Positions 1 to 41,830 of a DNA stretch of 55,518 bases are shown piece by piece. Under the pieces are notes generated by a model, which was not told where the DNA came from, did not search any database, and saw only the letters and a list, made by a program, of their open reading frames with translations. How positions within the stretch are numbered: the first letter of the stretch is position 1; every line of letters begins with the position of its first letter. Position numbers and translations under genes: made by a program. The DNA comes from Tolypothrix carrinoi HA7290-LM1 (lineage in GTDB: Bacteria; Cyanobacteriota; Cyanobacteriia; Cyanobacteriales; Nostocaceae), in the NCBI GenBank assembly GCA_019358935.1, contig JAHHIK010000055.1:1-55518 (forward strand), in the 5' to 3' direction.

Positions 1-3000
1 ACAATATGGTGCATCACCACCAGCAACACGTGTTCTTTTTCTTTTAGCTTGAGCAAACTCGCTCGCACTAACGGGTCAACAGCCAAATCAAACGGTCGGC
101 TTGCTTCTTCAATTGCCAGTTGTTGGCTAGTAATTTCTTGCTGTGTTTGGTCTAGCTGTTGCAAGTCTACAACTTGCAATGTTAAGGTCAAGCTGCTGGC
201 AATCACACTAATCGGTTGTCCGTCTACTGTCACGAAGTTGGTGCGTAGGGCTTCGTGGCGGCTGATGATCTCATTGAGACTGGACTCTAAAGCCGCAACG
301 TTGAGCTGACCTTGAAAACGCACTGCCACCGGAATGTTGTAAAAGCCACTATCAACTTCTAACTGCTGTAGGAACCACAAGCGTTGTTGGGCAAACGAGA
401 GAGGCATTGACGACTGCCGTACCACTTTTACTATTGGCGGAGTTTGTCTTGATTGTCCTGTGTGCTGGTTCGTTTTGATGCACTCGGCTAAAGCAGCGAC
501 AGTGGGTTGCTCAAACAGGCTGCGTAATGGTAAGTCCACTGCAAATGTGCTTGCCACCCGCGAAATCAGTTGCGTTGCCAGTAATGAATGTCCGCCAAGT
601 TCAAAAAAGTTATCATAGACACCCACACGCTCTATACCCAGCAGCGATGCCCAGATGCCAGCGAGCATCTCTTCAGTTGGCGTTCTCGGAGCCACAAAGT
701 TGTGTGATTCAAGTTGCCCTCCGGGTTCGGGTAAGGCACGACGGTCAACTTTGCCATTGGGTGTCAGTGGCATCGCATCAAGCATCACAAAATAAGAGGG
801 CACCATATACTCGGGTAGCTGCTGATGTAGGAAGTCACGCAACTCGCTAATGGTGGGTGCAGGCTGTGTTAGCGGTACAATGTAAGCGACTAAGCGCTTA
901 TCACCTACAATTTCTTTGGCAATGACAACTGAAAGTTGCACGCTTGGGTGTTGGCGAAGTTGCGCCTCAATTTCTCCGAGTTCCATACGGAAGCCACGGA
1001 TCTTGACTTGGTGGTCAATGCGTCCGAGATATTCGATGTTGCCATCAGTGAGGTAGCGGACTAAATCTCCAGTTTTGTACAACCTTGAACCGGCATCGCC
1101 AAACGGGTTGGGAATAAACTTCTCTGCGGTTAACTCTGGACGGTTGAGGTAGCCACGAGCCAATCCATCCCCACCAATGTGCAATTCGCCCGGTACGCCT
1201 ACGGGTACAGGTTGCAAATTGGCATCGAGGAGATAAAATTGGGTGTTGGCAATTGCCCCTCCTATCGACACCGACCCAGAACCTGGCTGTACTTGGGATA
1301 CCGCTGACCAGATGGTGGTTTCTGTCGGACCGTACATATTCCACAAGCTATCTGCGCGTTCGAGCAATTGACTTGCAAGTTCCCGGGATAGGGCTTCACC
1401 GCCGCAGAGTATTTTTAATTGCTGGTTGCCAATCCACCCTGCTTGCATCAGTAGTCGCCAAGTGGCGGGTGTGCCTTGCATCACCGTCGCGCTAGATGTC
1501 GCCAAGGCGGCTGTGCTTTGACCACCGTCAGCAACAACTTCTCGATTGACGACTACACATGCACCTAAACTTAACGGCCCGAACAGTTCCAACGCGGCAA
1601 TGTCAAAGGTAATAGTAGTCACCGCCACCAAAACATCTGATGACACCAGACCCGGTTGGCGAGACATTGATGTTAAGAAATTTACCACGGCATCGTGGCG
1701 AATTTGCACTCCTTTGGGTCGTCCGGTGGAGCCGCTCGTATAAATTGCATAGGCGAGGTTGTCAGCTTGGACGCCACTGTCAGGGTTGGATGAACTGTGG
1801 TCGCTCTGCCAATTTTTGTCCAAGTAAACAACACGCCCATCATATTCGGTCAGCGTTGGCATCAGATGTTGTTGCACAAGCAGCACTTCTACACGGGCAT
1901 CTTCTAAAATGTACGCCAATCGCTCTGTTGGGTAGATCGGGTCAAGTGGTACATATGCTCCACCCGCCTTGAGAATGCCCAGCAGTCCCACCACCATCTC
2001 CATCGAGCGTTCCGTGCAAATACCAACCAACACCTCAGGTTCGACACCTAACGATAGTAGGTGGTGTGCCAGTTGGTTGGCTTTGGCGTTTAACTCTCGG
2101 TAGGTTAGTTGCTGGTCTTCAAACACCACTGCCACCGCATCTGGCGTTAAGTCAACTTGTTGTTCAAACAAGGAATGCAGGCACAAATGTTTGGGGTAGT
2201 CGGCTTGGGTGAGGTTCCATTCCACCAATATCTGATGTTGTTCTATGGCAGTCAGTAGCGCTATATCTGATAGCTTCTGTTGGGGATTGGCAACAATTGC
2301 TGAGAGCAGAGTTTGATAATGCCCTGCCATTCGCTCAATGGTGGCAGGGTCAAACAAATCTGTATTGTATTCGATTGACCCGCTTAATCCAAGGCTTGTG
2401 TTTTCTAGAGTCAGAGTCAAATCAAACTTGGCTGTCTCGCTTTCAAGTGGAAACGGTACAAGCGTTAAGTCAGTCAGTTCCAATTCTGGCATCGGTGCAT
2501 TTTGCAGCACAAACATCACTTGGAACAGTGGTGTGTAGCTCAAGGAACGTTCTGGCTGCAATTGTTCGACTAACTGCTCGAAGGGTAGGTCTTGATGAGC
2601 GTAAGCACCGAGTGCCACTTCCCGCACTTGTGACAGGAAATCGGCAAAACTGGGGTTGTTTGACAAATTGCTGCGTAGCACTAAAGTGTTGGCAAATAAT
2701 CCAATTAACCCCTCTGTTTCGCCACGATTGCGGTTGGCAATTGGTGTGCCCACGCAGATGTCACTTTGCCCGGTGTAGCGACTCAGCAATGTTTGAAATG
2801 CTGCCAGCAACGTCATGAACAAGGTTACTCCTTGTCGCTGGCTCAAGGCAAACAGCGCTGCGCTGTGTTCAACAGAGATGGCGAATTCGAGAGTAGCCCC
2901 CTTATAGGTTTGAATTGCCGGTCGCGGTCTATTTGTTGGTAGTTCCAACAAAGCAGTCGCACCCGATAGTTGTTGCTTCCAGTATGCTAGTTGCTTTGCC

Positions 3001-3788
3001 AGTACCTCCCCCTGTAGCCATTGCTGCTGCCACACCGCAAAGTCGGTGTACTGTATGGGCAATTCTGGCAGTGCAATTGCTGCTTGGTTGCACGTAGCTT
3101 GGTATACTGCTGCTAACTCCCGCACCAGCACGCCGATTGACCAACCATCTGAAACAATATGGTGCATCACCACCAGCAACACGTGTTCTTTTTCTTTTAG
3201 CTTGAGCAAACTCGCTCGCACTAACGGGTCAACAGCCAAATCAAACGGTCGGCTTGCTTCTTCAATTGCCAGTTGTTGGCAAGTGATTTCTCGCTGTGTT
3301 TGGGCTAGGTGTTGCAAATCCACAACTTGCAGTGTTAAGCCACGGTTTGGGTGAATTACACTAACCGGTTGTCCGTCTACTGTCACGAAGTTGGTGCGTA
3401 GGGCTTCGTGGCGGCTGATGATGTAATTCAGACTGGACTCTAAAGCCGCAACGTCGAGCTGACCTTGAAAACGCACAGTAACATAAATGTTGTAAAAGCC
3501 ACTATCAACTTCTAACTGCTGTAGGAACCACAAGCGTTGTTGGGCAAACGAGAGAGGTAGTTTTCCTTCTCGTGGAACGGGTAGAATGGGATCAAGAGTG
3601 GAACTTGAGGCAAGATTAGCCTTTTGCAGAAACGCAAGGATTTCTGCTTTGCGCTCTTGCAACTGAACACGAAGGGAAGGTGTCAGTGTTCCTTCCGGGG
3701 CACTACAGCGCAGGCGATCGCCATCAGCCCAAAGCTTTATATCCAAACTACACAGGTAAGATAAAAACTCTTCGATAATAATTTTCAT
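1..3788 (-). CDS. NRPS, truncated by window edge: TubC_N-type docking domain-C-A(Gly)-PCP-C...
   Basis: Absent from the ORF track (no stop in window). ATG at 3788 overlaps the upstream TGA and reads MKIIIEEFLSYLCSLDIKLWADGDRLRCSAPEGTLT. Motifs LSFAQQRLWFL, HHIVSDGWS, YTSGSTGRPKGV, TFDIAALELFGPL, NMYGPTETTIWS, DNFFELGGHSLLA, then a second C domain running off base 1. Confidence 0.92.
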   Translation of the reverse strand, partial: MKIIIEEFLSYLCSLDIKLWADGDRLRCSAPEGTLTPSLRVQLQERKAEILAFLQKANLASSSTLDPILPVPREGKLPLSFAQQRLWFLQQLEVDSGFYNIYVTVRFQGQLDVAALESSLNYIISRHEALRTNFVTVDGQPVSVIHPNRGLTLQVVDLQHLAQTQREITCQQLAIEEASRPFDLAVDPLVRASLLKLKEKEHVLLVVMHHIVSDGWSIGVLVRELAAVYQATCNQAAIALPELPIQYTDFAVWQQQWLQGEVLAKQLAYWKQQLSGATALLELPTNRPRPAIQTYKGATLEFAISVEHSAALFALSQRQGVTLFMTLLAAFQTLLSRYTGQSDICVGTPIANRNRGETEGLIGLFANTLVLRSNLSNNPSFADFLSQVREVALGAYAHQDLPFEQLVEQLQPERSLSYTPLFQVMFVLQNAPMPELELTDLTLVPFPLESETAKFDLTLTLENTSLGLSGSIEYNTDLFDPATIERMAGHYQTLLSAIVANPQQKLSDIALLTAIEQHQILVEWNLTQADYPKHLCLHSLFEQQVDLTPDAVAVVFEDQQLTYRELNAKANQLAHHLLSLGVEPEVLVGICTERSMEMVVGLLGILKAGGAYVPLDPIYPTERLAYILEDARVEVLLVQQHLMPTLTEYDGRVVYLDKNWQSDHSSSNPDSGVQADNLAYAIYTSGSTGRPKGVQIRHDAVVNFLTSMSRQPGLVSSDVLVAVTTITFDIAALELFGPLSLGACVVVNREVVADGGQSTAALATSSATVMQGTPATWRLLMQAGWIGNQQLKILCGGEALSRELASQLLERADSLWNMYGPTETTIWSAVSQVQPGSGSVSIGGAIANTQFYLLDANLQPVPVGVPGELHIGGDGLARGYLNRPELTAEKFIPNPFGDAGSRLYKTGDLVRYLTDGNIEYLGRIDHQVKIRGFRMELGEIEAQLRQHPSVQLSVVIAKEIVGDKRLVAYIVPLTQPAPTISELRDFLHQQLPEYMVPSYFVMLDAMPLTPNGKVDRRALPEPGGQLESHNFVAPRTPTEEMLAGIWASLLGIERVGVYDNFFELGGHSLLATQLISRVASTFAVDLPLRSLFEQPTVAALAECIKTNQHTGQSRQTPPIVKVVRQSSMPLSFAQQRLWFLQQLEVDSGFYNIPVAVRFQGQLNVAALESSLNEIISRHEALRTNFVTVDGQPISVIASSLTLTLQVVDLQQLDQTQQEITSQQLAIEEASRPFDLAVDPLVRASLLKLKEKEHVLLVVMHHI

Positions 3789-6700
3789 AATTCTATCTCC
3801 TCTCGGTTGTTCACCATCTCAACGGGGAGAGCACCTATCTGTTGTGCTATTGAACGAATTCTCTCAATATGCTTGGCGAGTCCTGCCACACTAGACTCCT
3901 CAAATAGGCTGTGCACGGGCAACTCAACTTGGAAGGTTTCGCGTATCCGAGAAATGACTAGAGTACCTAGCAAGGAATGTCCCCCTAACTCAAAGAAGTT
4001 GTCGTGAATGCCCACTTGCTCAATTCCAAGCAGTTGTTGCCAAATGTTAGCAATAGTTTGCTCCAGCTCATTGCGGGGAGCAACATAAGCATTGCTGAGT
4101 TCAGGTCTTGGATGTGCTGGTTTGGATGGGATAGTTTTATCTAACGGTTCCAAGAAAGATAGTGTTTTTGAAGCATTCTCCCACTCACCTCGAATCCCTA
4201 AATCTCTAGTTGATACCGCAACTTGAGGCAATTTACTTTCCAAAATGCGGCTTAAGGCATCTACGCCCTCATTGGGCAATATTCCTTGTTGAAGAATCTC
4301 ACTACGCAATTTTTGGAGTTCGAGTGGCAACGCTGTGTTTACTGCCATCCCCACCTCTTGCCAATTATCCCAGTTGGTACATACAGTGAAAGTACCACGT
4401 TTGGAATTTTTGTAGTGAGCAAAGGCATCAAGAAAGGCATTTGCACTAGCATAGTCTACCTGCCCAAATCCTCCTAGGATTGAAGTAGTTGATGATGTAA
4501 GGATAAAGAAATCCAACTGAATATCCTTGAGGATAGAATCGAGAATTAGCGTACCCTTCACTTTAGGTGCGAGAATTTTCTCTGCATCATCCGGGGTTTT
4601 ACCTTGAATTACGCCGCCTCCAGGAACTCCTGCGGCGTGGACTACTCCATTAATCTGACCAAATCGGTCTTTTGCCGAAGCAATAGCTTGTTGCATTTGT
4701 TGCTGATTGCTTGTATCTGCACTGACCACCAAAACTTCAGCACCTAGCTCTTCAAGTTCCTGAACTTTCCGGATTTTGCGGCTCACGCTATCTTGATCGT
4801 CATGACTAGCAAGCCATTGTTCCCACTCTTCTCTGGTGGGCAAAGCTGAACGTCCTATCAGGATAAGTTTGGCTTGTACAGTCTTCGCAAAATGTTCCGC
4901 TAGCACAAGTCCAATGCCTCCAAGTCCACCTGTAATCAAATAGACTCCACCTTCCCTTAACTGTGGTGTCGCTGCGCTGGACTTATCCAATCGAACTGGC
5001 TCAAAAGTTTGCACCCAGCGATGAAGACCACGATAAGCAATTACCCGATCGCTGGTAGTGGTTGTAAGTTCCGTCAGCAGATGGTCTGTGAGTTTTTCCT
5101 CGTGCCAACTTTCTGTTGAAGGAATGACAACATCAATGCTGCAACAGTTTATGTTTGGGTATTCTTGCGCTATGACCCTAACAGGTCCAAGTATAGTTGC
5201 TTTCTCTGGACACAGCACCTCAACGCCTGTCACTTCCTGCATATTGTTGGAAATAACCGCGATTTGCAGCTTATCATTCACAGTTTGTTTGCCAAGGGCT
5301 TGTGCTAAAAACAATAGACTGTAAAATCCTAAATCTTGAGCTGTGTCAACCGATTGCAGTCCTGATTCTGCTTCACTGTTCGGCGTGACACTCCATAAAT
5401 GTACAATCTTTTGTGGAATTTTGCCCAGTGTGTGCAGTTGATTAAGCAGGGCACCGTAGTCATTACTTTGTCTGGGATTTAGAGTATATAGGCGATCGCT
5501 CAACTTAGTAAACTCTGACCCGACCTTCACCGTAATGACATCGTGTCCCTCAAATTCAAGTTTTTTCACCAATTGGACACCCAAGCCACACTCATCGATA
5601 AATACAAGTGTATTCGATCGAACTGGTGTCTCACCTAATTTAGGGGCGATGAGCTGGGAACGTTTCCAGGAGGGAATGTAGAACCAGTCGGCAATGTCTG
5701 GCTTTTTATGTGGTACAGACGTTGAAGACAACATTTCTACATTACTCTTGACAGCGCTTGCTTGTTTTTGTGGTTCAATCCAGTAACGCTGGCGCTCAAA
5801 AGGATAAGTCGGCAAGGGGAGGCGATGACGCTGCTCATGGTGATAAAATCCCGACCAATTCACCTGTACGCCACTAAGCCAGAGCTTGCCTAATGTAGTC
5901 AGCAAAAATGCTACATCCGATTGGCGATCTCGCGGATGGCGTAAGCTCGAAAGCACTACTTGCTGGTTCCCCTTATCTGGATGCTGTCTGACTAATGTGC
6001 TTAATGTCTGTCCGGGTCCAACCTCCAGCAGGATTTGCTCCGGTTCTTTTAAGAACTGTTGCACACCCTCACCAAAACGTACTGTGGAGCGCAGATGGTT
6101 TGCCCAATAGTTTGGATCTGTTGCTTGTGCCGCAGTAATCCAAGTGCCCGTGACGTTGGATGTGTAGGAAATTTTTGGGGGCTTTAACTTAACTTTTTTG
6201 ACCTGCTCAATGAACGACCCAAGTATGGGTTCCATCATTTTTGAATGGAAGGCATGGGAGGTATGTAAACGGCGACACTCCACACCTTGTTCGGCTAAGT
6301 GGTTCTCTAATGCCTCTACAGCTTCAGCGATCCCTGAAACTACGCAAAAGCTCGGTCCGTTAATCGCAGCTAAAGAGAGTTCATTGCCCAAGAGGGTTTG
6401 CACCTTCTCTTCTGGAAGGGGAACGGAAAGCATTGTCCCTGAGGGCAGTTGTTGCATCAGCTGTCCCCGTGCAGTCACCAAGGTTAGGGCATCTTCCAGG
6501 GAGAAAACATTTGCCAGACACGCTGCAACATATTCACCGATGCTGTGACCGATCATCGCTTGCGGACGCACTCCCCATTCCATCCATAACTTTGCCAAAG
6601 CGTACTCAATCACAAACAGCGCTGGCTGTGCAATAGCTGTCTGTTTAATTTGCTGTGCAGCTTCTTCGGCGCGTTCTTCGCTTGGGTACAGCACATGGCG

Positions 6701-8431
6701 CAGGTCAAGCCCCAAGTGGGGTTTGAGGAGTTCCGAGCAAATATCCACCTGCTTGCGAAATGTCGGCTCAGTCTGGTAAAGTTCTAGAGCCATATTAACG
6801 TACTGCGCTCCCTGCCCTGAAAACATAAACACTACAGGTCGAGCCTTCGGTTCTATGAAGCTTGTAAAAACTTGTTTTGCATCCAGGGAATTAAGTGCGA
6901 TCGCTACCTCGTTAATATCTTGACAAACCAGCATCCGTCGGTGGTCGAAACCTCGGCGACCCACTTGCAACGTATGAGCAACATCAGCTAGGTTAATATC
7001 TGGATGCTGTTCGAGGTAAGCAGCCAAATTCGCTGTTGCACTTTCTAAAGCTGTATCGGTTTTAGCCGAGAGCAACAACAACTGCCAGGGACGAGAAGGA
7101 CCTGATGGTTCAACAGCAGGGGCTTCTTCAAGTACCACATGGGCATTTGTCCCTCCAAAACCAAAAGAACTGACTCCCGCACGGCAAGGAGTACCATTTG
7201 CCTTCCATTCTGAAAGTGTGCTATTGACGTAAAAAGGGCTGTTATCAAAATCTATCTGAGGGTTAGGCTGCTCAAAGTGCAAACTAGGAGGTATTTGTTT
7301 ATGTTTAAGGGCTAGGACAGTTTTAATAAGACTTGAAATACCAGCTGCTCTATCCAGATGCCCGATATTGCTTTTTACAGAACCAATGGCACAGAAGCCT
7401 TTCTTCTGTGTTCTGGCGCGAAAAGCCTGTGTCAGTGCTGTGACTTCAATCGGATCTCCTATAGATGTTCCAGTTCCGTGGGTTTCTATATAGCTGACAG
7501 TATCTGGCTCTACTCCAGCGGCAGATAAAGCCTCTAAAATCACATTCGCTTGACCATCCACACTGGGCGCTGTATAACTAACTTTTAAAAACCCATCGTT
7601 ATTTATAGCCGAACCTTTGATAACAGCATGAACGAAGTCGCCATCAGCAATGGCATCCTCTAATCTTTTCAAAACCACAATGCCCAAACCGTTACCAAAA
7701 ATAGTTCCCTGTGCTTTAGCATCAAAGGGGCGGCAATGCCCATCAGGTGATAAAATACCCTCTTGTCGATGGTAGTACCCAGCTTTTTGTGGCACTTGTA
7801 TTGACACACCACCAGCTAAAGCCATATCACATTCACTATTTAGCAAGCTTTGGCAAGCCAAATGAACAGCTACCAACGATGTAGAACAATAAGTTTGAAT
7901 ATTAATGCTTGGTCCTTTCAGGTTTAATTTATAAGAAACACGAGTAGCTAAAGAATCTTTATCATTTCCCAAAGAAATCATTTCTTCTAATCCCGTGACA
8001 TCAGGATTTGAATAAAGATTCAACATGTAGCTACTCATGCTGCTGCCAGCATAAACTCCAATAGAACCCTGAGCAGAACCGCCGTAACCAGCAACCTCAA
8101 GGGCTTCCCAAGCACACTCTAAGAAAAGGCGATGTTGTGGATCTATAATTTCGGCTTCTTTTGGAGAAAAGCTGAAGAACGAAGCGTCTAACAACTCTAT
8201 ATCTTTGAGTAGGGGTTTTGCTTTTACATAGTTAGGGTCATTTAGCTTTGCCTGGTCTATACCTGAAGTCTCCAGTTCCTCTTCACTTAAAAAGGAAATT
8301 GACTCCACACCGTTTTGCAGATTCTGCCAAAATTCTTCAATATTTTTTGCTCCAGGAAACCGACCAACCATACCAATAATGGCTATGTCTAAATCATCGA
8401 TCGCGTCTTCCAATTTTTCTGAGTTTTTCAT
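3785..8431 (-). CDS. cis-AT type I PKS module KS-AT(malonyl)-KR-ACP
   Basis: KS QTYCSTSL/HGTGT/GHLD; AT GHSIGEY and HAFHS; KR GGLGGIG and YASAN, no LDD; carrier GGHSLL; C-terminal acidic motif REEIEL. Confidence 0.95.
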   Translation of the reverse strand: MKNSEKLEDAIDDLDIAIIGMVGRFPGAKNIEEFWQNLQNGVESISFLSEEELETSGIDQAKLNDPNYVKAKPLLKDIELLDASFFSFSPKEAEIIDPQHRLFLECAWEALEVAGYGGSAQGSIGVYAGSSMSSYMLNLYSNPDVTGLEEMISLGNDKDSLATRVSYKLNLKGPSINIQTYCSTSLVAVHLACQSLLNSECDMALAGGVSIQVPQKAGYYHRQEGILSPDGHCRPFDAKAQGTIFGNGLGIVVLKRLEDAIADGDFVHAVIKGSAINNDGFLKVSYTAPSVDGQANVILEALSAAGVEPDTVSYIETHGTGTSIGDPIEVTALTQAFRARTQKKGFCAIGSVKSNIGHLDRAAGISSLIKTVLALKHKQIPPSLHFEQPNPQIDFDNSPFYVNSTLSEWKANGTPCRAGVSSFGFGGTNAHVVLEEAPAVEPSGPSRPWQLLLLSAKTDTALESATANLAAYLEQHPDINLADVAHTLQVGRRGFDHRRMLVCQDINEVAIALNSLDAKQVFTSFIEPKARPVVFMFSGQGAQYVNMALELYQTEPTFRKQVDICSELLKPHLGLDLRHVLYPSEERAEEAAQQIKQTAIAQPALFVIEYALAKLWMEWGVRPQAMIGHSIGEYVAACLANVFSLEDALTLVTARGQLMQQLPSGTMLSVPLPEEKVQTLLGNELSLAAINGPSFCVVSGIAEAVEALENHLAEQGVECRRLHTSHAFHSKMMEPILGSFIEQVKKVKLKPPKISYTSNVTGTWITAAQATDPNYWANHLRSTVRFGEGVQQFLKEPEQILLEVGPGQTLSTLVRQHPDKGNQQVVLSSLRHPRDRQSDVAFLLTTLGKLWLSGVQVNWSGFYHHEQRHRLPLPTYPFERQRYWIEPQKQASAVKSNVEMLSSTSVPHKKPDIADWFYIPSWKRSQLIAPKLGETPVRSNTLVFIDECGLGVQLVKKLEFEGHDVITVKVGSEFTKLSDRLYTLNPRQSNDYGALLNQLHTLGKIPQKIVHLWSVTPNSEAESGLQSVDTAQDLGFYSLLFLAQALGKQTVNDKLQIAVISNNMQEVTGVEVLCPEKATILGPVRVIAQEYPNINCCSIDVVIPSTESWHEEKLTDHLLTELTTTTSDRVIAYRGLHRWVQTFEPVRLDKSSAATPQLREGGVYLITGGLGGIGLVLAEHFAKTVQAKLILIGRSALPTREEWEQWLASHDDQDSVSRKIRKVQELEELGAEVLVVSADTSNQQQMQQAIASAKDRFGQINGVVHAAGVPGGGVIQGKTPDDAEKILAPKVKGTLILDSILKDIQLDFFILTSSTTSILGGFGQVDYASANAFLDAFAHYKNSKRGTFTVCTNWDNWQEVGMAVNTALPLELQKLRSEILQQGILPNEGVDALSRILESKLPQVAVSTRDLGIRGEWENASKTLSFLEPLDKTIPSKPAHPRPELSNAYVAPRNELEQTIANIWQQLLGIEQVGIHDNFFELGGHSLLGTLVISRIRETFQVELPVHSLFEESSVAGLAKHIERIRSIAQQIGALPVEMVNNREEIEL

Positions 8432-8453: not shown

Positions 8454-11400
8454 TTATTTTGAAATCCGCTGGCGTTGCTTTTTCTTCTCTCTTCGTTTTT
8501 GCCCTCGATCAAAACTGGACTCACCAAGAAGATCTTGATTTTCATCACCACTTAAAATTTCTGCAAGGGAACTGACGGTAGGACTTTTATAAAGACTGAC
8601 TAAAGGAATTTGAATATTCAATTCTTTCTGCATCTGGGAAATAACCTGGATACTTATCAGAGAATTACCTCCCAAATCAAAAAAGTTGTCATGAATACCT
8701 ACTTTCTCAATTCCGAGGACTTGTTGCCAGATTTCGGCAACTATTTGCTCAACCTCATTGCGAGCCGCAACGTAATTATTCCCTAAATTGGGGCGGGGAT
8801 AGGTTGGTTTGTCAAGATTTGCCGTCGCTAATTTCTCTGACAAAAGCGCTAATTCTTTTCCCCGCAATTGGAAAGAATTGTTCTGATCAATTACCGATTG
8901 GAGGTCTTTTGTTGACACAACAATCTGAGGCTGCTTAATTCGCAAAATGCGACCAAACGCTTCGACACCCTCTTGAGGTAATATTCCTTTTTTAAGACTT
9001 TCTTCACGCCCCTGTTTGATCTGATCTGGCACTGCGGTTTCCACTGCCATCCCTACTTCTTGCCAAGCATCCCAGTTAATTGATACTGTAAATTGACCAG
9101 ATTTGGTAGCATGACGCTGGGCGTACACATCTAAAAAGGCATTCGCCGCACAATAATCTACCTGTCCAAAATCACCAAGGATGGAACTTATGGATGAACA
9201 AAGCACAAAGAAATCTAGATTGATATTCTTTAAAGCCTCTTCTAATACTAGTGTACCATTAACTTTCGGTGCTAGCACACTGGTGGCTGTATCCAGCGTC
9301 TTGAGTTGAACCACGCCGCCACCGGCAATACCCGCTGCGTGGATGACACCATTAATCTGACCAAATTGTTTTAATGCCTGAGCAATTACTGCCTGCATTT
9401 GTTCGGGATTAGCGACATCGGCACTTTTGAGTTGAACCTGTGCGCCCAATTCTTCAAGAGCCAACACTTTCTGGAGTTTGCGGCTGACAGCATCCTGGCT
9501 ATCATGAGTTGCTAGCCATTCAGACCAGTGCGATCGCTCGGGTAGCTCCTTTCGTCCGATCAGGATTAACTTAGCTTGTACTGTTTTAGCTAAGTATTCA
9601 GCTAATACTAACCCAATTCCACCAAGTCCACCAGTGATTAGGTAAACTCCTTCTTGCTTTAACCTGGTTTTACCTGCAATATTATCGTCTAAATGGATTT
9701 TCTCAAAGGTTTGAACCCAGCGGTGATGCCCACGGTAGGCAACTATGTTTTCACTCGTCTGTACTGTAAATTCCGTTAAAAGGTTATCTACCAGTTGTTG
9801 TGTTGGTGTTTCCGAATAAGGAATCACTACATCAATGCAACAGCAGGTTAAGTTGGGGTATTCTTGTGGAATCACTTTGCACGGTCCTAACACCGTTGCC
9901 TTCTCAGGACACAACCTCTCCTCGCCAGTGACATCATATATATTGCTGGTGACGACCATCAGCTTAATGGGGTCAGTAATATTCTCTTCTCCCACCGCTT
10001 GTGCTAGGAAAAGCAGACTCCTGAAGCCGAGATTTTGAAAATCTTCAAAAAATTGATGCGGTGATTTCGTCAGTTCATCTAGCTTGTTGTTGAGCAGTGT
10101 ATCATTGGGTGTGACGCTCCAAAAGTGGGCGATCGCGTTTGGGTTCAAATCCTGCTTTTGAAGTGCTTGGAACAAGGCATTATAGTCATCTGGTTGTTGA
10201 GGATTAATGGCGTATGTACGGTCATTGAGTTTGGTAAATTGCTGTCCCATCGTCACGGCGATCGCATCCTGACCCTGTTGTTCAAGTCGTTTTGCGATTT
10301 CCTCTCCGATTCCATAGGCATCTACAAAAACCAACCAGCATAACTTTTGCCCTGCCAGTTCTCCGTTTTGAAAAAGCTCAGGTGGTGTGGATTCTTTCCA
10401 ACGAGGAACATAGAACCAGTCGGCAATATTTGGCTTCTTGTGTAATGGTTCTTGTGATACTGTAGCTTGGGCAAATGAGGGATTTGGCTTAATCCAGTAA
10501 GGCTGGCGTTCAAAAGGATATGTCGGTAGGGGGATGCGATGGCGTTGTTCATGGGTGTAAAAACTAGACCAATCGATTTCAACCCCCAACAACCAAAGCC
10601 GACCCAAAGTGTTAAGTAAAAATGCTACATCTGACTGTTGCTCCTGTGGATGACGCATTGAGGTCAGTACCGCCAACTTTTCTGTTTGATGCTGAAGAGC
10701 AAAAGTACTTAATGTCCGCCCTGGTCCAATTTCCAGTAAAATGCGCTCATGTGTTTGAACTAACTGAGCAATTCCTTCATTAAAATGTACTGGCTGTCGT
10801 AAATGCCTTGCCCAATAGTTGGGGTCTGTTGCTTCTGTTGCGGTAATCCAAGTTCCACTGACATTGGACACAAACGGAATTTGGGGGGGATTGAGTTTGA
10901 CGAGTTGTAACAACTGGGTGAATGGCTGAATGATGGGTTCCATCATTTGAGAATGAAAAGCATGACTCGTATGCAGTTGCCGACATGCTACACCTTTTTC
11001 TTGTAGCTGCTGTTGCAATTGTTCTACAGCTGACAAGGAACCTGACACCACACAGTAGGAAGGTGCATTGCTTGCTGCTAAAGACAGTTCCTTTGTCAGC
11101 AAAGGTTTCACCTGTTGTTCGGGAAGTTGAACTGAGAGCATTCCCCCTTGAGGTAACTGCTGCATCAGTTTTCCTCGCTTCGCTACTAGTGCTAAGGCAT
11201 CGTCAAGCGAGAAAACTCCAGCCACGGTAGCAGCTACGTACTCTCCAATGCTGTGACCAATCATCGCTTCCGGATGCACACCCCATGCGATCCACAACTG
11301 AGCAAGAGCGTACTCAATTACAAACAGCGCTGGCTGGGTAATAGCAGTTTGTAGCAGATACTGTGCGGCTTGTTGAGTTTGTTCTTCATTGGGATAAAGT

Positions 11401-30629: not shown

Positions 30630-30630
30630 T

Positions 30631-33600: not shown

Positions 33601-34275
33601 TACCACACCTGTTTGGGGATCGTGTCCGTGCTTCGCGCGTGCCTGGCGATAAAGGGCAATTTTTTCGGCTAACTGCTCAATGCTCTGATCTAGTAGATGA
33701 GTCAAAAGATTGGCACCAATCTCCCCAGCTTTAATAAAAGTTTGGGGGCTTCCGGCAGCTGTGAGCCAAACAGGTAATTCTTTTTGGATTGGCGTTGGGT
33801 AGATCCGCAGATCAATCTGGTTCCCAATGCCATTTGTTGCCTGGATGGATTCCCCCTGCCACAGTTTTTGTACTATCTCGATGCCAGAAAACATTTCTTT
33901 ATGGCGATCTTGATATTTTTCTGGAAAGAAAGCAAAGTCATCAGGGTTCCAGCCAGGAGCAAAGGAAATTCCTACCCTACCTCCGGACAAATTATCGACA
34001 ACAGCCCACTCTTCCGCAATCCGAATGGGATTGTGTATTGGCACTACCACACTACCAGCCTGCAAGCGGAGGTGCTTAGTTTCCCTTGCTAGTGCCGCGT
34101 GCAACACTGCTGGATTTGGGTAAAGACATCCAAACTTTGTAAAATGCCGTTCTGGTACCCACAAACTAGAAAAGCCGTGTTGGTCTGCAAATTTAGCACT
34201 GTCAATAACCAGATGATATTTATCTCCGATTAAAGCTTCTTCACTGCTGGCAAAAAACATTAAGCCGAACTGCAT
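30631..34275 (-). CDS. PKS half-module: luciferase-like monooxygenase - C-terminal half of DH - KR - ACP
   Basis: N-terminus MQFGLMFFAS...WVPERHFTKFGCLYPNP (LLM, about aa 1-345); DH second half [45 protein letters not shown] 8 nt before the ATG. Confidence 0.9.
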   Translation of the reverse strand: MQFGLMFFASSEEALIGDKYHLVIDSAKFADQHGFSSLWVPERHFTKFGCLYPNPAVLHAALARETKHLRLQAGSVVVPIHNPIRIAEEWAVVDNLSGGRVGISFAPGWNPDDFAFFPEKYQDRHKEMFSGIEIVQKLWQGESIQATNGIGNQIDLRIYPTPIQKELPVWLTAAGSPQTFIKAGEIGANLLTHLLDQSIEQLAEKIALYRQARAKHGHDPQTGVVTVMLHTFVGEDMNVVRELVRAPYCEYLKSNIGLLKNLGSSRGHSINIAAMSPKDLDDFVNFLFERFASSRGLIGTPETCVNLLEQLDSIGVDEAACLLDFGPSADLILKHLPYLNQLQERYNNVAQKRSPLHRSLTVPETLTAELSFSATSTNGANSSLELPEQIQARCQEEIAGSEFYHKLRQYSVQLEASFQGIEHIWRRDGEALGLVQLLEELKPSADAYKIHPAFLDACFQVLVAALPTYSLSNNSGTLYIPAGLRSLELHGRIDQTLWSHAVLRSEVSNSADPLLEGDVHLLDRLGNVVVTVSGLRLQRTTHGVKRSNQDNLVETHTNSLQDWLYELQWQLKLQEEKESLPPQQPGSWLIFTDKSGIGQKLAALLKARGETCFMVTPGEAYKVSLEGQFCLNPSVPEQMHQLIQTILGETRSPCLGVVHLWSLDTTPLEETTIATLEKDQVLSVASALHLIQALAQTATTKLPIWFVTKGTQPVSKESTTLAVAQAPLWGLGRVVSVEYPNLPTTLVDLERSSSLDEAAGLLFNTIQNPDGENQIAFRQEQRYVARLRYARKMLLPVRQSDLLPDATYLITGGLGGLGLLVARWMVERGAKHLVLLGRSAASETANQTLSEFKKLGVEVKTVLLDVSSQEQVAKVIADIERSQLPLRGVVHLAGVLDDSLLVQQDWQRFIKVRTAKVEGAWNLHTLTQNSPLDFFVLFSSAACLVSMPGQGNYAAANAFLDALAHHRRAHGQPALSINWGPWADIGHAATPYGRKAHEGLARLGIERIAPQQGLEMLQLLLQQDLSQVGVVSVNWSQLLLNLPFSELSPLLSELKNQTQLQTERLEVSKSDILQQLKQYSASDRFSVLTAYIQGEVAKVLKLEPSKLPDSQQGFFDMGMDSLMAVELKNRLEASFGVSLPVTLTFEFPTIKDVAGYLAKKVMGWELPAASDTELPKGEDEQALALSQVEEISDDGIEASIAEELAKLENLVRGN

Positions 34276-37200
34276 AATTTTTTCTCCTGTTCGTTACTGT
34301 GAGCAATTTTTGCAGTTGCGTGCAGTGTCCACTTTTTAGAGGATGGGTCTGCATCTGTTGGGCGGCTGTAAACTTGAAAAGATGTTAAGCCATCCACATC
34401 AGTAGCAAGGATAATCTGAACGGTTTGAGTGCCATTCTCAGGAATGAAGAGTACATTGTGCAGTTCCAAATCCCTGACTTGGTGAAATCCCCCAAAAACT
34501 TCTTCGCAAGCAACCAAAGCCATTTCTAAGTAAACTGCGACAGGTACAACTGCGGCTCCAAGGAGTCGATGCTGCGTTAGATAAGGGAGGCGGCGCTTAT
34601 CAAGCTCAATTTCCCAAAAGTAATGGTTGGGAAGATGCGCTAGGTTTTTTAATTGAGGACCTAAAAGCGGATGTCCCTTGGTATCGTTTGAGTTCTGCCA
34701 AGTTTCCAGAGGCTGCGAGTTTTTCGATGGTAGTTTTGTCTCAATCCAATAGCGCGATCGCTCCCACGGATAAGTCGGTAAATTCACTCTTTGTCCCTGA
34801 TTTTCTTGGTAAAAACCAGACCAGTCTACGTCTACTCCATGTACGTACAGTTCCCCCAAACTTTCGAGCATTTGCTGACAATCTGACTGTCCTTGGCGCA
34901 AACTGGGGAGCCAAACTCCCTCGACTGCGGGCAAGCAGTTGCGACCCATCCCCAACAACGTTGGTTTTGGTCCAATCTCCACAAACACCTCATAACCAGA
35001 GGTATGAAGTGTCTTTAAACTTTCAGCAAATTCTACGGGGGAACGTAAATGGCGACACCAGTAGTCAGGGGTGATATCTGATGTCAGTTGCTCACCCGTG
35101 AGGTTGGAGACGACCGTCATTTGGGGAGCTGCGTAGGTAACATTGTCCGCCACCTCACGGAATTGAGCCAGTATCGGCTCCATCAGTGGTGAGTGGAAGG
35201 CGTGGGAGGTTTGTAGCTTTTTAGTTTTAATTTTTGCTGCTTCTAATTGGGTACAGATTGCCTGCACTGCTTGCGCCTCTCCAGAAATTACGGTGTTCTG
35301 CAACCCATTATAAGCGGCAAATGATACTTTTTTATTATCAATTTCATGAAGTTTCCGTATAAATGCGGGTGAGGCAAACACTGCTACCATCTCACCACCA
35401 GTCGGCAAACTCTGCATCAAGCGGGCACGTTCGCTGATGAGCTTTAGTCCATCCTCCAAGGTGAAGACTCCCGCTACAGTTGCAGCGACGTATTCCCCTA
35501 CACTATGACCCATCACCGCTGATGGGTCAATGCCCCAAGATTTCCACAATTGCACCAAAGCATATTCTAGGGCGAATAAAGCAGGTTGGGTATAAGCGGT
35601 CTGGTCTAGCGGTGAAGCCTCGCCCGGTTTGGGATAGAGGACTTGCAGCAGTGACTGCCCCAAGTAGGGACGCAGAATTTCATCGCAGCGGTCGAGGGCT
35701 TGCCGGAAGATGGGCGCATTTTCGTAGAGTTGGCGTCCCATGCCCAAATACTGAGAGCCTTGACCAGTAAACAAAAACGCTATTTTCTGGCGCTTGCTGT
35801 TGTTTACCTGACCGCTTACTAGTTTGGCAGTCTCTTTCTTAGCAGCGAAGGCTTCTAGCTGTTCTCGTAACTGCACGGTAGATTCAGCAACTACGGCAAG
35901 GCGGTGGTTAAAATGCGATCGCCCCGTATTAGCAGTAAAACAAACATCGAAAAGCGATACTTCAGGATGAGACGCTAAGAAATCTACATAACTTTGTGCT
36001 AGTTCCGAAAGTGCCTTCTCGCTTTTTGCTGAAAGCGTCAAAAGGTGCATCTTGGGTTGAATATCATTAGCACTTGTGGTGGTAGGTGGTGCTTCTTCCA
36101 GGATGACATGACAATTTGTGCCACCGAAGCCAAATGAGCTTACCCCTGCCAAGCGGCGTTCTGTGAGCGCAACCCAAGGCTGGCGTTCAGTAGGGATAGA
36201 AAAAGTTGTTCCTTTTAGGGAAATATAAGGATTTAGCTGCTCCAAATGCAGATTCGGTGGTATCTCCGCGTGTTGCATTGAAAGTACCACCTTGATCAGT
36301 CCAGCAATTCCAGCAGCACCCTCTAAATGACCAATATTAGTTTTAACCGAGCCAATCCAACAGGGTTGATCTGGCTCCCGACCCTGCATTAGCACGGCTT
36401 TTAGGGATTTAACTTCGATTGGGTCTCCCAAAGAGGTGGCAGTGCCGTGAGCTTCAACATAGCTAATTTGCGTTGATGCCACGCCTGCATTTTCCAAGGC
36501 TTCACGGATAACCGCCTGTTGGGAAGGTCCATTGGGTGCTGTCAGTCCATTGCTCAGACCATCTTGGTTAACTGCTGAACCTTTGATAATTGCTTGAATA
36601 TTGTCTTTATCCCGAAGTGCATCTTTTAGGCGCTTAAGAACTACTATGCCGCAGCCCTCCCCCCTTACGTAACCGTTAGCACTTGCGTCAAAGGTTTTAC
36701 ACCGACCATCAGCTGACATCATGTGTGCTTGAGAGAAAGTTATGCTCGGCTCAGGGGACAGAATCAAGTTTACCCCTCCAACTAAGCACAGATTGGACTC
36801 GCCGTTCTGCAAACTTTGACACGCGAAGTGGACTGCAACCAAGGAAGAAGAGCAAGCAGTATCTAGTGCCACACTCGGTCCTCGTAAATCCAGCACATAG
36901 GATACGCGGTTAGCGGCAATGGAGAAAGCAGTTCCTGTACCGCTGTGTGCATTAATACCGGATAATTTCTGGTAGGTAAGTCTGTGATAGTCAGCATTAC
37001 ATATGCCGATAAAAACTCCAGTCTTGCTGCCTGCTAGCTTTTGCGGTACAATTGCGGCGTTTTCTAGAGCTTCCCAAGCGACCTCCAACAATAATCTTTG
37101 CTGGGGGTCCATCGGTTCTGCCTCACGAGGGGAAATGCCGAAGAAGCTTGGTTCAAATTGATCTACCTGCTCTAGGAAGCCACCCCAACGGGTATTCATT

Positions 37201-37376
37201 TTTTCTGGAGTAGCTGGCTTTGGGTCATACAAGGTGTCAATATCCCAGCGTTCTTTTGGTACTTCCGTAATGGTATCCACCCCGTTACGCAAGAGCTGCC
37301 AGAATGATTCTGGGTTGTTAGCACCAGGAAAACGACAGCCAGTACCGATAATTGCTATAGGTTCCATTTCCTTCAC
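34260..37376 (-). CDS. PKS half-module: KS-AT(malonyl)-N-terminal half of DH
   Basis: [30 protein letters not shown]; ends with HPLLG...HRLLGAAVVP (DH catalytic His motif)...WTLHATAKI, then stops. Start may be the ATG at 37367 (MEPIAIIG). Confidence 0.92.
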   Translation of the reverse strand: MKEMEPIAIIGTGCRFPGANNPESFWQLLRNGVDTITEVPKERWDIDTLYDPKPATPEKMNTRWGGFLEQVDQFEPSFFGISPREAEPMDPQQRLLLEVAWEALENAAIVPQKLAGSKTGVFIGICNADYHRLTYQKLSGINAHSGTGTAFSIAANRVSYVLDLRGPSVALDTACSSSLVAVHFACQSLQNGESNLCLVGGVNLILSPEPSITFSQAHMMSADGRCKTFDASANGYVRGEGCGIVVLKRLKDALRDKDNIQAIIKGSAVNQDGLSNGLTAPNGPSQQAVIREALENAGVASTQISYVEAHGTATSLGDPIEVKSLKAVLMQGREPDQPCWIGSVKTNIGHLEGAAGIAGLIKVVLSMQHAEIPPNLHLEQLNPYISLKGTTFSIPTERQPWVALTERRLAGVSSFGFGGTNCHVILEEAPPTTTSANDIQPKMHLLTLSAKSEKALSELAQSYVDFLASHPEVSLFDVCFTANTGRSHFNHRLAVVAESTVQLREQLEAFAAKKETAKLVSGQVNNSKRQKIAFLFTGQGSQYLGMGRQLYENAPIFRQALDRCDEILRPYLGQSLLQVLYPKPGEASPLDQTAYTQPALFALEYALVQLWKSWGIDPSAVMGHSVGEYVAATVAGVFTLEDGLKLISERARLMQSLPTGGEMVAVFASPAFIRKLHEIDNKKVSFAAYNGLQNTVISGEAQAVQAICTQLEAAKIKTKKLQTSHAFHSPLMEPILAQFREVADNVTYAAPQMTVVSNLTGEQLTSDITPDYWCRHLRSPVEFAESLKTLHTSGYEVFVEIGPKPTLLGMGRNCLPAVEGVWLPSLRQGQSDCQQMLESLGELYVHGVDVDWSGFYQENQGQRVNLPTYPWERSRYWIETKLPSKNSQPLETWQNSNDTKGHPLLGPQLKNLAHLPNHYFWEIELDKRRLPYLTQHRLLGAAVVPVAVYLEMALVACEEVFGGFHQVRDLELHNVLFIPENGTQTVQIILATDVDGLTSFQVYSRPTDADPSSKKWTLHATAKIAHSNEQEKKLCSSA

Positions 37377-39998: not shown

Positions 39999-41830
39999 AA
40001 ACTTTGATTTGCTGCCATAGTTTTTGTTGCTTGTGTTTCTTGCAGTTGTTGCAATAAAGAATCAACTTCACTATCCAAATGCAGGAATTTCGTTTTGTTC
40101 TGAGGATTCTCACTCCAATCTTGCACCACATCTAAACTTCCACTTACAAAACCAGATCGACAAGCATGACGCTGAATTTTATTACTGGAAGTTTTGCAAA
40201 TAGTGCCAGTCCTAACTAATACCGCAGCATAAACCTGGAGACCGTGATGCGTCGCTACGCTGTGGCGGATATTTCCAACTACCTCATTCACATCCAGTTT
40301 TCGCAGGTAAGAGCGCTCCACCTCATGAACAATTACCAGTCGTTCTTCACCCTTTACCTCTACCGCAAACGCTGCCCCGCAACCACGCCGCAGTGCCGGA
40401 TGACTCCTCTCTACGGTCAGTTCAATGTCTTGGGGATAATGGTTTTGCCCTCGGATGATAATAACATCTTTGATGCGCCCCGTGACAAACAACTCGCCAT
40501 TCTGCAAGAATCCTAAGTCCCCCGTCCGCAGGAACAGTCCCTCTTCTGTGTCTAGCAGTTGCGCTCCAAAGGTTTGCTTTGTCTGTTCTGGTCGATTCCA
40601 ATAGCCCTGTGCCACACTCGAACCTGATACCCAAATTTCACCTATCTCATTGGGCTTACAGCGGGTCATTGTCTCTGGATTGGCAATGACAACCTTCATG
40701 TCTTGCAAGGCTTGACCGCAACCAACCACTGTTTGGCTGGCGGAATCCTCCTTGCTAGCTGTAACTACGCGATTTTGCTCTAGCGCTTCTTTTTGAACGT
40801 TTTGCAGGACTGGCGCTTGGCTTGCATGACCACCAGAAATGATCAGAGTCGTTTCTGCCATGCCGTAACAGGGGTAGAATGCCTCGCGGCGGAAGCCACA
40901 AGGTGCAAAAGCCGCTACAAAACGCTCCATAGTTTCGGGACGGATCTGTTCGGCTCCGTTGAAAGCTATCTGCCAACTACTGAGGTCGAGAGTCGCCCGC
41001 TCTTCCTCCGTAATCTTGTTCACGCATAGCTCGTAAGCAAAACTAGGTCCGCCGCTGGTGGTGCCTTTATATTGAGAAATTGCCGTCAGCCAGCGCAAAG
41101 GCTTTTGTAGGAAGTTTTCCGGCGACATAAGTATGACGGGGAATCCACCATAGAGGGGCTGTAGGACTCCACCAATCAACCCCATATCATGGTAAGGAGG
41201 CAGCCATATAACTCCCTTGCTGTTGGGGGTATGCTCAAAACACTTATGGATCAGAGTTGAATTGTGCAGCAAATTGCCATGACTTACCATTACCCCTTTC
41301 GGTGTTCCGGTAGAACCTGAGGTATACTGGAGAAAAGCTAGGGTACTGCTTTCCAAAGCTGTTCTCTGCCATGACTCCGCCTGATGTTCGTCAATGTTGT
41401 CAGTAGCCAAACAGCGCAATCCAGCTAGTTCTGCATTCTCGGCAAACCGACTCTCGATGTTACTCAATAGAGCTTCTGTGGTGAGTAACACCTGAGGTTG
41501 GGCATCTGCCACAATCGCCTCGATTCGGGACATTTTTTGATTGCGCCTGGGTGGATAAGCGGGAACAGCCACAACAGAGGCGTACAGACATCCGAAAAAG
41601 GCGGCAATGAATTCTAGACCGGATGGATATAGCAGTAAAGCTCGTTGTCCGGTAGCTCCTATGCTCTGGAGTTGAGCCGCGATCGCCCGTGCCTGTCGGT
41701 CCAATTCTCCATAAGTCAGACTACTTAATTCTGTGTCTGTGTCTTTTATAAAGGTATAAGCTCTTTGGTCTTGCTGCTGTTGCGACCTTTCTCTCAAGAC
41801 ATCTACCAAAGTAGAAAATTCTTGTAACAT
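39995..41830 (-). CDS. Fatty acyl-AMP ligase (FAAL)
   Basis: FLQYTSGSTGTPKGV, WLPPYHDMGLIG, CYGMAETTL followed by the FAAL-type insertion (QKEALEQNRVVTAS...), LRTGDLGF; AGGAG upstream. Confidence 0.93.
   Translation of the reverse strand: MLQEFSTLVDVLRERSQQQQDQRAYTFIKDTDTELSSLTYGELDRQARAIAAQLQSIGATGQRALLLYPSGLEFIAAFFGCLYASVVAVPAYPPRRNQKMSRIEAIVADAQPQVLLTTEALLSNIESRFAENAELAGLRCLATDNIDEHQAESWQRTALESSTLAFLQYTSGSTGTPKGVMVSHGNLLHNSTLIHKCFEHTPNSKGVIWLPPYHDMGLIGGVLQPLYGGFPVILMSPENFLQKPLRWLTAISQYKGTTSGGPSFAYELCVNKITEEERATLDLSSWQIAFNGAEQIRPETMERFVAAFAPCGFRREAFYPCYGMAETTLIISGGHASQAPVLQNVQKEALEQNRVVTASKEDSASQTVVGCGQALQDMKVVIANPETMTRCKPNEIGEIWVSGSSVAQGYWNRPEQTKQTFGAQLLDTEEGLFLRTGDLGFLQNGELFVTGRIKDVIIIRGQNHYPQDIELTVERSHPALRRGCGAAFAVEVKGEERLVIVHEVERSYLRKLDVNEVVGNIRHSVATHHGLQVYAAVLVRTGTICKTSSNKIQRHACRSGFVSGSLDVVQDWSENPQNKTKFLHLDSEVDSLLQQLQETQATKTMAANQSL

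Follow-up and report, generated by a model that had tools for sequence, protein, structure and literature searches.

The 55,518-bp contig C55 (JAHHIK010000055.1) of the cyanobacterium Tolypothrix carrinoi HA7290-LM1 carries a long run of assembly-line genes, and these raise a question in two parts: what would such a line make, and does it belong to a system that has already been described? The contig, one of 184 in a 7.96-Mb draft genome (G000), was analyzed in its entirety and is referred to as the window. Eleven open reading frames, all on the minus strand and either overlapping or separated by gaps of no more than about 310 bp, run from position 41830 to position 3. Together they encode an FAAL (fatty acyl-AMP ligase), a membrane desaturase, an acyl carrier protein (ACP), a CMAS-family methyltransferase, four malonyl-type polyketide synthase (PKS) modules, four glycine-coded nonribosomal peptide synthetase (NRPS) modules and two embedded luciferase-like monooxygenases (LLMs). 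The best overall explanation – to which we assign a probability of roughly 0.6 – is that this hybrid line would produce a modified, 4,5-diol-bearing acyl chain joined to six glycine-derived units, all of the chemistry being read by colinearity. The window would then hold the first 42 kb of a PKS/NRPS line of roughly 52 kb.

A preliminary description of this DNA had set out the order FAAL-desaturase-ACP-CMAS, PKS, PKS, Gly(LLM)-Gly-Gly, PKS, PKS, Gly, and every element of that string is found in its place by Pfam and by motif. Because the Pfam E-values of the window's domains range from 1e-20 to 0, chance is not an issue for these calls. The malonyl loading that the same description had read from HAFHS motifs also holds: all four acyltransferase (AT) domains carry both GHSxG (GHSVG in PKS module 1) and HAFHS. 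The Cys-His-His triad is present in each of the four ketosynthase (KS) domains; all ketoreductases (KRs) have the glycine-rich NAD(P)H-binding motif, with the catalytic Tyr visible in all four and an LDD motif in that of module 1; and the carrier serines are present in the carriers checked. TubC_N docking domains stand at both PKS-to-NRPS handovers. The two embedded monooxygenases are likewise real members of their family, both exceeding the TIGR04020 (MupA/Atu3671 FMN-dependent LLM) cut-off of 244.45 over the full model (487.8 and 548.2 bits) and both having the PuwE domain (PDB 6ket) as their best solved-structure relative; they share 53.6% identity with one another.

The nature of the peptide portion depends on the adenylation (A) domains. 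The ten specificity positions of each were read by offsets from the a4, a5 and a10 motifs, which we take to be those of GrsA numbering. The LLM-bearing domain gives DILQMGMIWK and the other three A domains in the window give DILQLGMIWK, so that all four fit the DILQ.G.IWK pattern from which glycine loading had originally been predicted. Gly codes were also obtained for all six A domains of a second genome of the same genus (G001) and for the one A domain read on a further contig of the present genome (C174); the fifth A domain of G000 falls in an assembly gap. The glycine reading is supported because the same extraction, applied to the cyanochelin B cluster (ccs; Leptolyngbya sp. NIES-3755 plasmid 2, AP017310.1), whose product was solved by nuclear magnetic resonance (NMR), returns DILQLGLIW at the two positions shown by NMR to be Gly or Gly-derived: a Phe-type code plus DILQLGLIW for the Phe2-Gly3 protein, and DILQLGLIW for the last, Gly-derived position. 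The window codes differ from DILQLGLIW at one or two positions.

The preliminary description had also anticipated more beyond the edge, as proves to be the case: the contig ends inside a condensation (C) domain of NRPS2, with the first 141 aa of the domain present, and two more Gly modules, a relic epimerization (E) domain, an MFS transporter and a Gly module with reductive release would lie beyond it. In G001 the whole line stands on one 1.44-Mb contig with six Gly modules, most of its proteins are 88-98% identical to their orthologs in the present genome, and the ortholog of NRPS2 is a protein of 2650 aa organized as C-A-PCP-C-A-PCP-E. Judged by G001, the missing end of the line is contig C174 (10.9 kb), which in the direction of transcription starts inside a peptidyl carrier protein (PCP) domain and continues with a C-like (E) domain, an MFS transporter and a C-A(Gly)-PCP-reductase protein (NRPS3). 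Because the C174 proteins match the C-terminal part of NRPS2, the MFS protein and NRPS3 of G001 (95-97% identity), the assembly break appears to hide about one repeated Gly module. Gly modules of this line are about 80% identical to one another at the DNA level, and the first 133 bases of C174 (C174:10745-10877) are 98% identical to the PCP-proximal positions 586-718 of the window.

Two domains on C174 bear on how the line ends. The terminal domain of NRPS2 is, from its sequence, probably an epimerization domain and would be a relic. Its best PDB matches are the PCP-E didomains of PvdL (1e-173), TycA (6e-122) and GrsA (5isw, 3e-121), as against 4e-24 for a C domain, and TIGR01720 also matches; its HHxxxDG motif reads HHxxxDV (HHLAVDVVSW, a G to V change), and the residue that precedes it is the achiral Gly. 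The reductase (R) domain of NRPS3 scores 379.7 bits against the thioester reductase model TIGR01746 (cut-off 213.35), with the TGATGFLG and YQQSK motifs visible.

Read in order, these parts predict a product. The FAAL would charge the free ACP with a long-chain fatty acid, the membrane desaturase would add a double bond, and the CMAS-family methyltransferase would alkylate the chain with S-adenosylmethionine (SAM), following the logic of FshA, FshD, FshE and FshF of the fischerazole cluster. PKS module 1 would add malonate, its KR giving a beta-hydroxyl and its LLM an alpha-hydroxyl – that is, a 2,3-diol as in cyanochelin B – with the dehydratase (DH) serving as a scaffold or docking element; module 2 would add a fully reduced C2 unit. 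NRPS1 would then supply Gly-Gly-Gly, with the LLM in its first A domain hydroxylating the glycine alpha-carbon, the carbinolamide most likely being kept, as in solanimycin B. PKS modules 3 and 4 would extend the third Gly to 6-amino-3,5-dihydroxyhexanoyl, and NRPS2 would add Gly-Gly, its terminal E domain acting as a relic docking to NRPS3. The sixth glycine would come from NRPS3 (C-A(Gly)-PCP-R) together with reductive release, the end most likely being ethanolamine as in cyanochelin B, and the MFS protein would export the product. The colinear sketch given in the preliminary description (modified acyl plus two ketides, then (hydroxy)Gly-Gly-6-amino-3,5-dihydroxyhexanoyl-Gly-...) is supported by the domain string and codes, and the most likely structure of the whole is R-CH(OH)-CH(OH)-CH2-CH2-CO-NH-CH(OH)-CO-Gly-NH-CH2-CH(OH)-CH2-CH(OH)-CH2-CO-Gly-Gly-NH-CH2-CH2-OH, where R is a desaturated, SAM-alkylated chain. 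Confidence is lowest for what becomes of the alpha-hydroxyglycine, for the outcome of the methyltransferase and for release as aldehyde or alcohol. If made, the compound would be an unusual amphiphile, in which a modified fatty tail bearing a diol is joined to six glycine-derived units that lack side chains, include a carbinolamide and a 1,3-diol, and end in ethanolamine.

In the starter cassette, NCBIfam fatty-acid-AMP ligase models match the FAAL at E 1e-142, yet below their cut-offs; the desaturase has three His boxes (aa 95, 132 and 279) and scores 100 bits against the DesA equivalog, whose cut-off is 400. The methyltransferase matches CmaA1 (1kp9) at 2e-42 and keeps E140, with C35 replaced by Ser and H167 by Gln. 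C35 and H167 are, together with E140, what we take to be the bicarbonate-binding residues of canonical cyclopropane synthases (CmaA1 numbering). In an alignment of the window protein with its 120 closest homologs (P0001-P0120, some of them myxobacterial or from other phyla) Glu140 is invariant, and the position of H167 holds Q in 114 and E in 7 of the 121 sequences. The protein also lies below all NCBIfam cyclopropane-synthase equivalog cut-offs (188 vs 390, 174 vs 400), and the type of product – cyclopropane, vinyl branch or methyl – is not predictable from its sequence. The CFAS-like enzyme FshF, which acts on an ACP-bound cis-olefinic acyl chain provided by FAAL, ACP and desaturase, gave both a vinyl branch and a cyclopropane in vitro (PMC13548996; here and below, statements on published systems draw on the accessible parts of the papers cited).

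Of 25 related loci examined, 17 have the four genes FAAL-desaturase-ACP-CMAS in this order; they are mostly cyanobacterial, and a KS-AT usually comes next. Some loci with the cassette are enlarged: three tandem CMAS paralogs are found in L013, L014 and L031 (Scytonema, Rhizonema), and three tandem desaturases in L015-L017 and L019 (Roholtiella, Komarekiella, Nostoc sp. MG11), with two ACPs in three of these four (L016, L017, L019). Such tandem loci suggest multiply modified acyl starters. In Brasilonema sp. CT11 (L029) the FAAL, desaturase and ACP are 79%, 90% and 82% identical to those of the window, and the adjacent CMAS is only 57% identical; because of this difference the parts of the cassette would appear to have different histories.

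In PKS module 1 the dehydratase is divided between two proteins, and the second protein begins with the LLM. The N-terminal half keeps the His of HxxxGxxxxP and the C-terminal half keeps DxxxQ, while GYxYGPxF is degenerate. The same protein boundary is found in G001, in a genome of another genus of the same family (G016), in a named Tolypothrix record (L007), in Rhizonema and Scytonema (L013, L014) and in cyanochelin BAU16016: because it is conserved across these genomes, the split is not a sequencing frameshift. By analogy, we take the role of the split DH to be that of a scaffold or docking element and not of a dehydratase, because the beta-hydroxyl of cyanochelin B survives in the product even though the cyanochelin DH also keeps His and Asp, and because the Rhizonema and Scytonema homologs have lost these residues (His to Tyr, Asp to Glu). 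Alpha-hydroxylation by domains of the LLM type has been proposed for PuwE (PMC4219810), for palmerolide module 9 and for PKS modules generally (PMC10204066). The neighboring module 2 differs between congeners: in G001 (G001:C1 770854-775803) it lacks DH and enoylreductase (ER) and has the KR only, measuring 1650 rather than 2215 aa, with a KS-AT 82% identical to that of the window; the protein PKS1b is 70.6% identical between the two genomes, as against 96-98% for the proteins that flank it. These values point to a recombination hot spot, and the congeners should, if so, differ by one oxygen.

The second monooxygenase lies inside an A domain in the middle of the line. In Gly module 1 the a4 motif (FDISVLE) occupies aa 723-731, the LLM aa 769-1081 and the a5 motif (YGPTE) aa 1186; the module continues with a PCP, a C domain (HHIVSDGWS at aa 1628) and nine more modules, six in the window and three on C174. 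That C domain shares 82% identity with its counterpart in the fourth Gly module of the window; for the counterpart in the third module the value is 78%, and because of these identities no specialization is apparent. Among the 150 best of 1.84 billion protein representatives, a ranking dominated by giant multi-module NRPSs, the A(LLM) unit has 11 contiguous matches. Ten of these were parsed (P0194 was not): all have Gly-like codes, and six continue with a C- or E-type domain, the remainder being terminal or truncated. Full-length matches are present in eight of 301 genomes of the order, G000 included. The mid-line A(LLM) form is rare but recurrent, and the accessible parts of the literature consulted hold no characterized example of it.

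One of these recurrences is in the same genome. Contig C29 (L001-L005, approximately 1000-63600, minus strand) carries a separate FAAL-primed PKS/NRPS cluster with an Asp/Asn beta-hydroxylase and a glycosyltransferase; its siderophore-like appearance comes from the genes alongside, which encode a TonB receptor with an AMIN domain, a periplasmic binding protein and an ABC exporter. Here a second C-A(LLM)-PCP, 66% identical to that of the window, again stands in mid-line and is followed by a pyridoxal phosphate (PLP)-dependent decarboxylase, two KR-only PKS modules (their KS domains about 67% identical to the KS of window PKS4), a methyltransferase and C-A-PCP-TE. C29 was considered as the continuation of the window line and rejected: it starts with a FAAL-ACP-C-A protein of its own, and its modules are 63-67% identical.

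The history of the line is suggested by a sister cluster in G016 (G016:C2, approximately 271000-325000; L104-L109). There a FAAL-ACP-PKS is followed by the same split LLM module, whose LLM is 92% identical to that of the window, a KR-only PKS, Gly, Gly, one PKS, Ser-E and Ser-E, and the cluster ends with an MFS protein (80%) and C-A(aromatic-type code)-PCP-R (R domain 80%). It has neither desaturase nor CMAS, and one further Ser-E NRPS. The C domain downstream of the E domain in the window line is 74-75% identical to those C domains of G016 that follow E domains. The G016 E domains have the canonical motif, and the residues that precede them are chiral. The Tolypothrix line accordingly appears to belong to the same frame, duplicated Gly modules having overwritten its later positions and left the E domain as a docking relic. 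A cyanochelin-like frame would have lost its metal-binding residues to duplicated Gly modules.

Several considerations weigh against the product proposed here. Substrate codes, the HAFHS rule and the KR motif rules are predictive rules of the field. Both the join of C55 to C174 and the fifth Gly module of G000 are drawn from G001 only; two bicarbonate ligands of CmaA1, C35 and H167, are missing from the methyltransferase, which makes its chemistry less certain; and dehydration by the module-1 DH, with its catalytic His and Asp, would be compatible with the sequence. The position of the second LLM argues for cleavage and not retention: a4-a5 is where the monooxygenase stands in the amide-forming modules of myxothiazol and melithiazol and in the architecture of FshJ, all of them tied to primary-amide release (PMC13548996, PMC10204066). 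Gly module 1 might thus be a point of scission, at which N-acyl-alpha-hydroxyglycyl-S-PCP collapses, as proposed for MtaG, MelG and FshJ, to a dihydroxy fatty primary amide and a glyoxylyl thioester; the downstream modules would then extend the glyoxylyl to glyoxylyl-Gly-Gly-aminodiol-Gly-Gly-ethanolamine, giving two products from one line, or else the full-length product would split after release. Lipid tail and polar hexaglycine-polyol head would in either case meet at a labile N-acyl-alpha-hydroxyglycine joint, which would break either while still enzyme-bound or, in an exported pro-form, by self-cleavage. Acyclic carbinolamides are indeed prone to cleave into aldehyde and amide (PMC10204066), and the cluster has no hydroxyl-capping gene such as an O-methyltransferase. 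However, modules known or proposed to cleave are terminal and followed by a thioesterase (TE) domain (PMC13548996), whereas a normal C domain, closely matching that of the fourth Gly module, follows here; six more modules, the exporter and the reductase are 88-98% identical in G001, which fits a single long product better; and a mid-line Gly A(LLM) followed by a C-type domain recurs, in six of the ten parsed matches and in the copy in the C29 cluster. We therefore regard scission, whether on the enzyme or after export, as unlikely. If it were true, the recurrence of mid-line A(LLM) units would fit a general chain-splitting or masked-aldehyde strategy in NRPS lines.

Another departure would be that the line bypasses, or fails to carry out, one or both monooxygenations, or that the module-1 DH is active; the product would then have plain Gly at the first position, an enoyl or 2-oxo group in place of the 2,3-diol, or both. 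Skipping has a precedent in solanimycin A, which is made by bypassing the monooxygenase (PMC10204066), the cluster contains no flavin reductase gene, and the DH residues just mentioned are kept. Yet both LLMs are full length and far above the TIGR04020 cut-off, and the 92% identity of the module-1 LLM in G016, a genome of another genus, suggests selection; the retention of the diol in cyanochelin B speaks against an active DH, as do the substitutions in Rhizonema and Scytonema, which indicate that this architecture can lose DH catalysis. Such an outcome seems to us quite improbable. Least of all do we expect the line to descend from a cyanochelin-like siderophore line through gene conversion by Gly modules and now to be silent or in decay, with no useful product: an E domain with an HHxxxDV motif after an achiral glycine module, the similarity among the Gly modules at the DNA level, the IS200, DDE and TnpB remnants that flank the cluster and the lack of synteny of its flanks with G001 would all accord with decay, but reading frames run without interruption over about 50 kb in both G000 and G001, all catalytic motifs checked are intact, most genes are highly conserved between these two genomes, near-identical DNA (at least 90%) is present in three of 11 same-genus genomes, and one named Tolypothrix record carries the first 10 pieces of the cluster at 89-99%. 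A functional line making a single, hydroxylated lipopeptide is the explanation that we retain.

Read as such a line, the cluster is a case of module-level evolution, with congeners that differ in one reductive loop (G000 vs G001), and it poses three questions: whether, in a non-terminal Gly A domain with a monooxygenase at a4-a5, the hemiaminal is kept or the chain is cut; what H167Q-clade CFAS-like methyltransferases make of ACP-bound olefins; and whether a DH split between two proteins serves as a scaffold for an alpha-hydroxylase.

Synteny with G001 extends to 1.3 kb upstream of the FAAL gene at one end and to 0.5 kb downstream of NRPS3 at the other, and the borders of the cluster are drawn there. 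The segment upstream of the FAAL gene (Table 1, last row) has approximately 35% GC and is apparently non-coding; it is 86.8% identical to G001 over 1317 bases (blastn), though the surrounding context differs. Rfam at gathering score gave no match anywhere in the window, and so no riboswitch or leader was found upstream of the FAAL gene; promoter-like sites in this region are not above shuffled sequence (13 vs 11.9 expected). On C55 the flanks of the cluster comprise a LysR regulator, an isochorismatase-family gene, a truncated glycosyltransferase and IS200/DDE fragments. Debris of mobile elements includes an IS200-like transposase at 48842-49807, adjoining a truncated GlcNAc-transferase fragment, a DDE_3 fragment at the contig end (55314-55517) and, on C174 (L006) downstream of NRPS3, a Cas12f/TnpB-type fragment at 1616-1954.

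Table 1. Features of the assembly line in the window, in the order of transcription, and the DNA upstream of it.
Feature	Position	Strand	Basis
Fatty acyl-AMP ligase (FAAL), 611 aa	39995..41830	-	Pfam AMP-binding 3e-71 + DIP2-like C domain
Membrane fatty-acid desaturase, 335 aa	38991..39998	-	Pfam FA_desaturase 1.9e-21
Free-standing ACP, 112 aa	38596..38934	-	Pfam PP-binding 1.4e-16; Ser of GLDSS motif present
CMAS/CFAS-family SAM methyltransferase, 290 aa	37415..38287	-	Pfam CMAS 2.6e-68, 230.7 bits
PKS module 1, protein 1: KS-AT(malonyl)-DH N-terminal hotdog half	34260..37376	-	Pfam; DH half ~34362-34673
PKS module 1, protein 2: LLM-DH C-terminal half-KR-ACP	30631..34275	-	Pfam Bac_luciferase aa 1-318, PS-DH aa 387-544, KR, PP-binding
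Embedded LLM 1 (PuwE type), predicted ketide alpha-hydroxylase	33322..34275	-	TIGR04020 487.8 bits; PDB 6ket PuwE 8.5e-122
PKS module 2: KS-AT(malonyl)-DH-ER-KR-ACP, fully reducing	23982..30629	-	Pfam + motifs
NRPS1, 3616 aa: docking-C-A(Gly, LLM inside)-PCP, C-A(Gly)-PCP, C-A(Gly)-PCP	13135..23985	-	Pfam: 3 C, 3 A (one split), 3 PCP, TubC_N, LLM
Embedded LLM 2, between A-domain a4 and a5 of Gly module 1	20743..21681	-	TIGR04020 548.2 bits; PDB 6ket 8e-132
PKS module 3: KS-AT(malonyl)-KR-carrier	8454..13142	-	Pfam; KS triad, HAFHS, KR catalytic Tyr; no LDD motif
PKS module 4: KS-AT(malonyl)-KR-carrier	3785..8431	-	Pfam + motifs
NRPS2, first 1262 aa: docking-C-A(Gly)-PCP-C(first 141 aa)	3..3788	-	Pfam; code DILQLGMIWK
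Low-GC DNA upstream of FAAL gene	41831..43143	.	Probable promoter/leader region + left border; conserved with G001

Does the line belong to a known system? The nearest relative of its head and tail is the cyanochelin B cluster, which is FAAL-primed like the window line (PMC12628792) and divides its first module at the same point, into FAAL-ACP-KS-AT-DH N half (BAU16016) and LLM-DH C half-cMT-KR-ACP (BAU16015). Identities are 58% for the FAAL, 60% for KS-AT and 66% for the LLM. At the other end, the best match of NRPS3 among 72,556 plasmid records is the last cyanochelin B gene, BAU16060 (C-A(Gly)-PCP-TD; 52% over 99% of its length). The two share the code DILQLGLIW, and in both lines an E domain closes the NRPS before the last (55% identical between C174 and BAU16061); C, A and R of the last gene are 51-56% identical. 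Cyanochelin B itself has a 2,3-dihydroxy-2-methylacyl head and an NMR-assigned C-terminal ethanolamine that is proposed to derive from BAU16060 (PMC12628792). Compared with it, the window line is without the beta-hydroxy-Asp modules, the Asp hydroxylase, the thiazoline-forming Cy module and the cMT, and adds the desaturase/CMAS cassette, a second PKS module, six Gly modules (one with LLM) and two mid-line KR-only PKS modules. Pfam finds no Asp beta-hydroxylase/TauD gene among the cluster proteins scanned from C55 and C174, where every A domain read has a Gly code, and no TonB receptor or siderophore uptake gene stands beside the cluster in the C55 flanks or on C174, the latter holding MFS and a TnpB fragment. 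Of four cyanochelin traits, two are thus present (the split LLM PKS head, and the E plus Gly-reductase tail) and two are absent (the beta-hydroxy-Asp machinery and the uptake genes). Cyanochelin C, described in a preprint, has, in the part of that account available, an architecture different from that of the window line.

A second relationship is with fischerazole (fsh; Fischerella sp. PCC 9431), whose FshA (FAAL), FshD (desaturase), FshE (ACP) and FshF (CFAS/CMAS) correspond to the window cassette, and whose FshJ, likened here by its published description, has a Gly A domain interrupted by a monooxygenase as in Gly module 1 (PMC13548996). The window is without the halogenases, P450 and thiazole module of that cluster; its PKS active sites are intact, whereas the fsh PKS is predicted to be inactive (PMC13548996); and FshJ is terminal (MOx-nMT-T-TE), in contrast to the mid-line module of the window. 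The same is true of MtaG and MelG (myxothiazol, melithiazol), which by description have, like the window, a Gly A domain with a flavin monooxygenase at a4-a5 that hydroxylates the glycine alpha-carbon (PMC13548996, PMC10204066): these are last modules, followed by TE and primary amide release, while the window module is followed by a C domain and further modules and therefore lacks the terminal PCP-TE arrangement of amide formation in MtaG, MelG and FshJ. SolF of solanimycin (Dickeya solani) is, like the window's, a mid-line Gly module with an embedded flavin monooxygenase, and its alpha-hydroxyglycine is kept in solanimycin B (PMC10204066); its domain lies at a8-a9 rather than a4-a5, and it belongs to an unrelated organism and an otherwise unrelated pathway. 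In puwainaphycin the PuwE domain, proposed to give the 2-hydroxyl of a 3-amino-2-hydroxy acyl unit, stands between an aminotransferase-bearing PKS module and an NRPS module (PMC4219810); the window has no aminotransferase. Crocacin is a further case of Gly-ketide-ketide-Gly logic.

The preliminary description had called the line an orphan, and in one respect this stands: no compound or cluster of this order was found in the full-text literature searched, most subscription journals lying outside that search. The line is nevertheless less isolated than that term implied, its head and tail being those of cyanochelin B and its cassette and A(LLM) those of fischerazole. Product and whole order are undescribed in the literature searched, and the cluster reveals no new kind of system: it works like parts of the cyanochelin and the fischerazole/MtaG-type systems while being a member of neither, and each of its unusual enzyme parts is known from other pathways.

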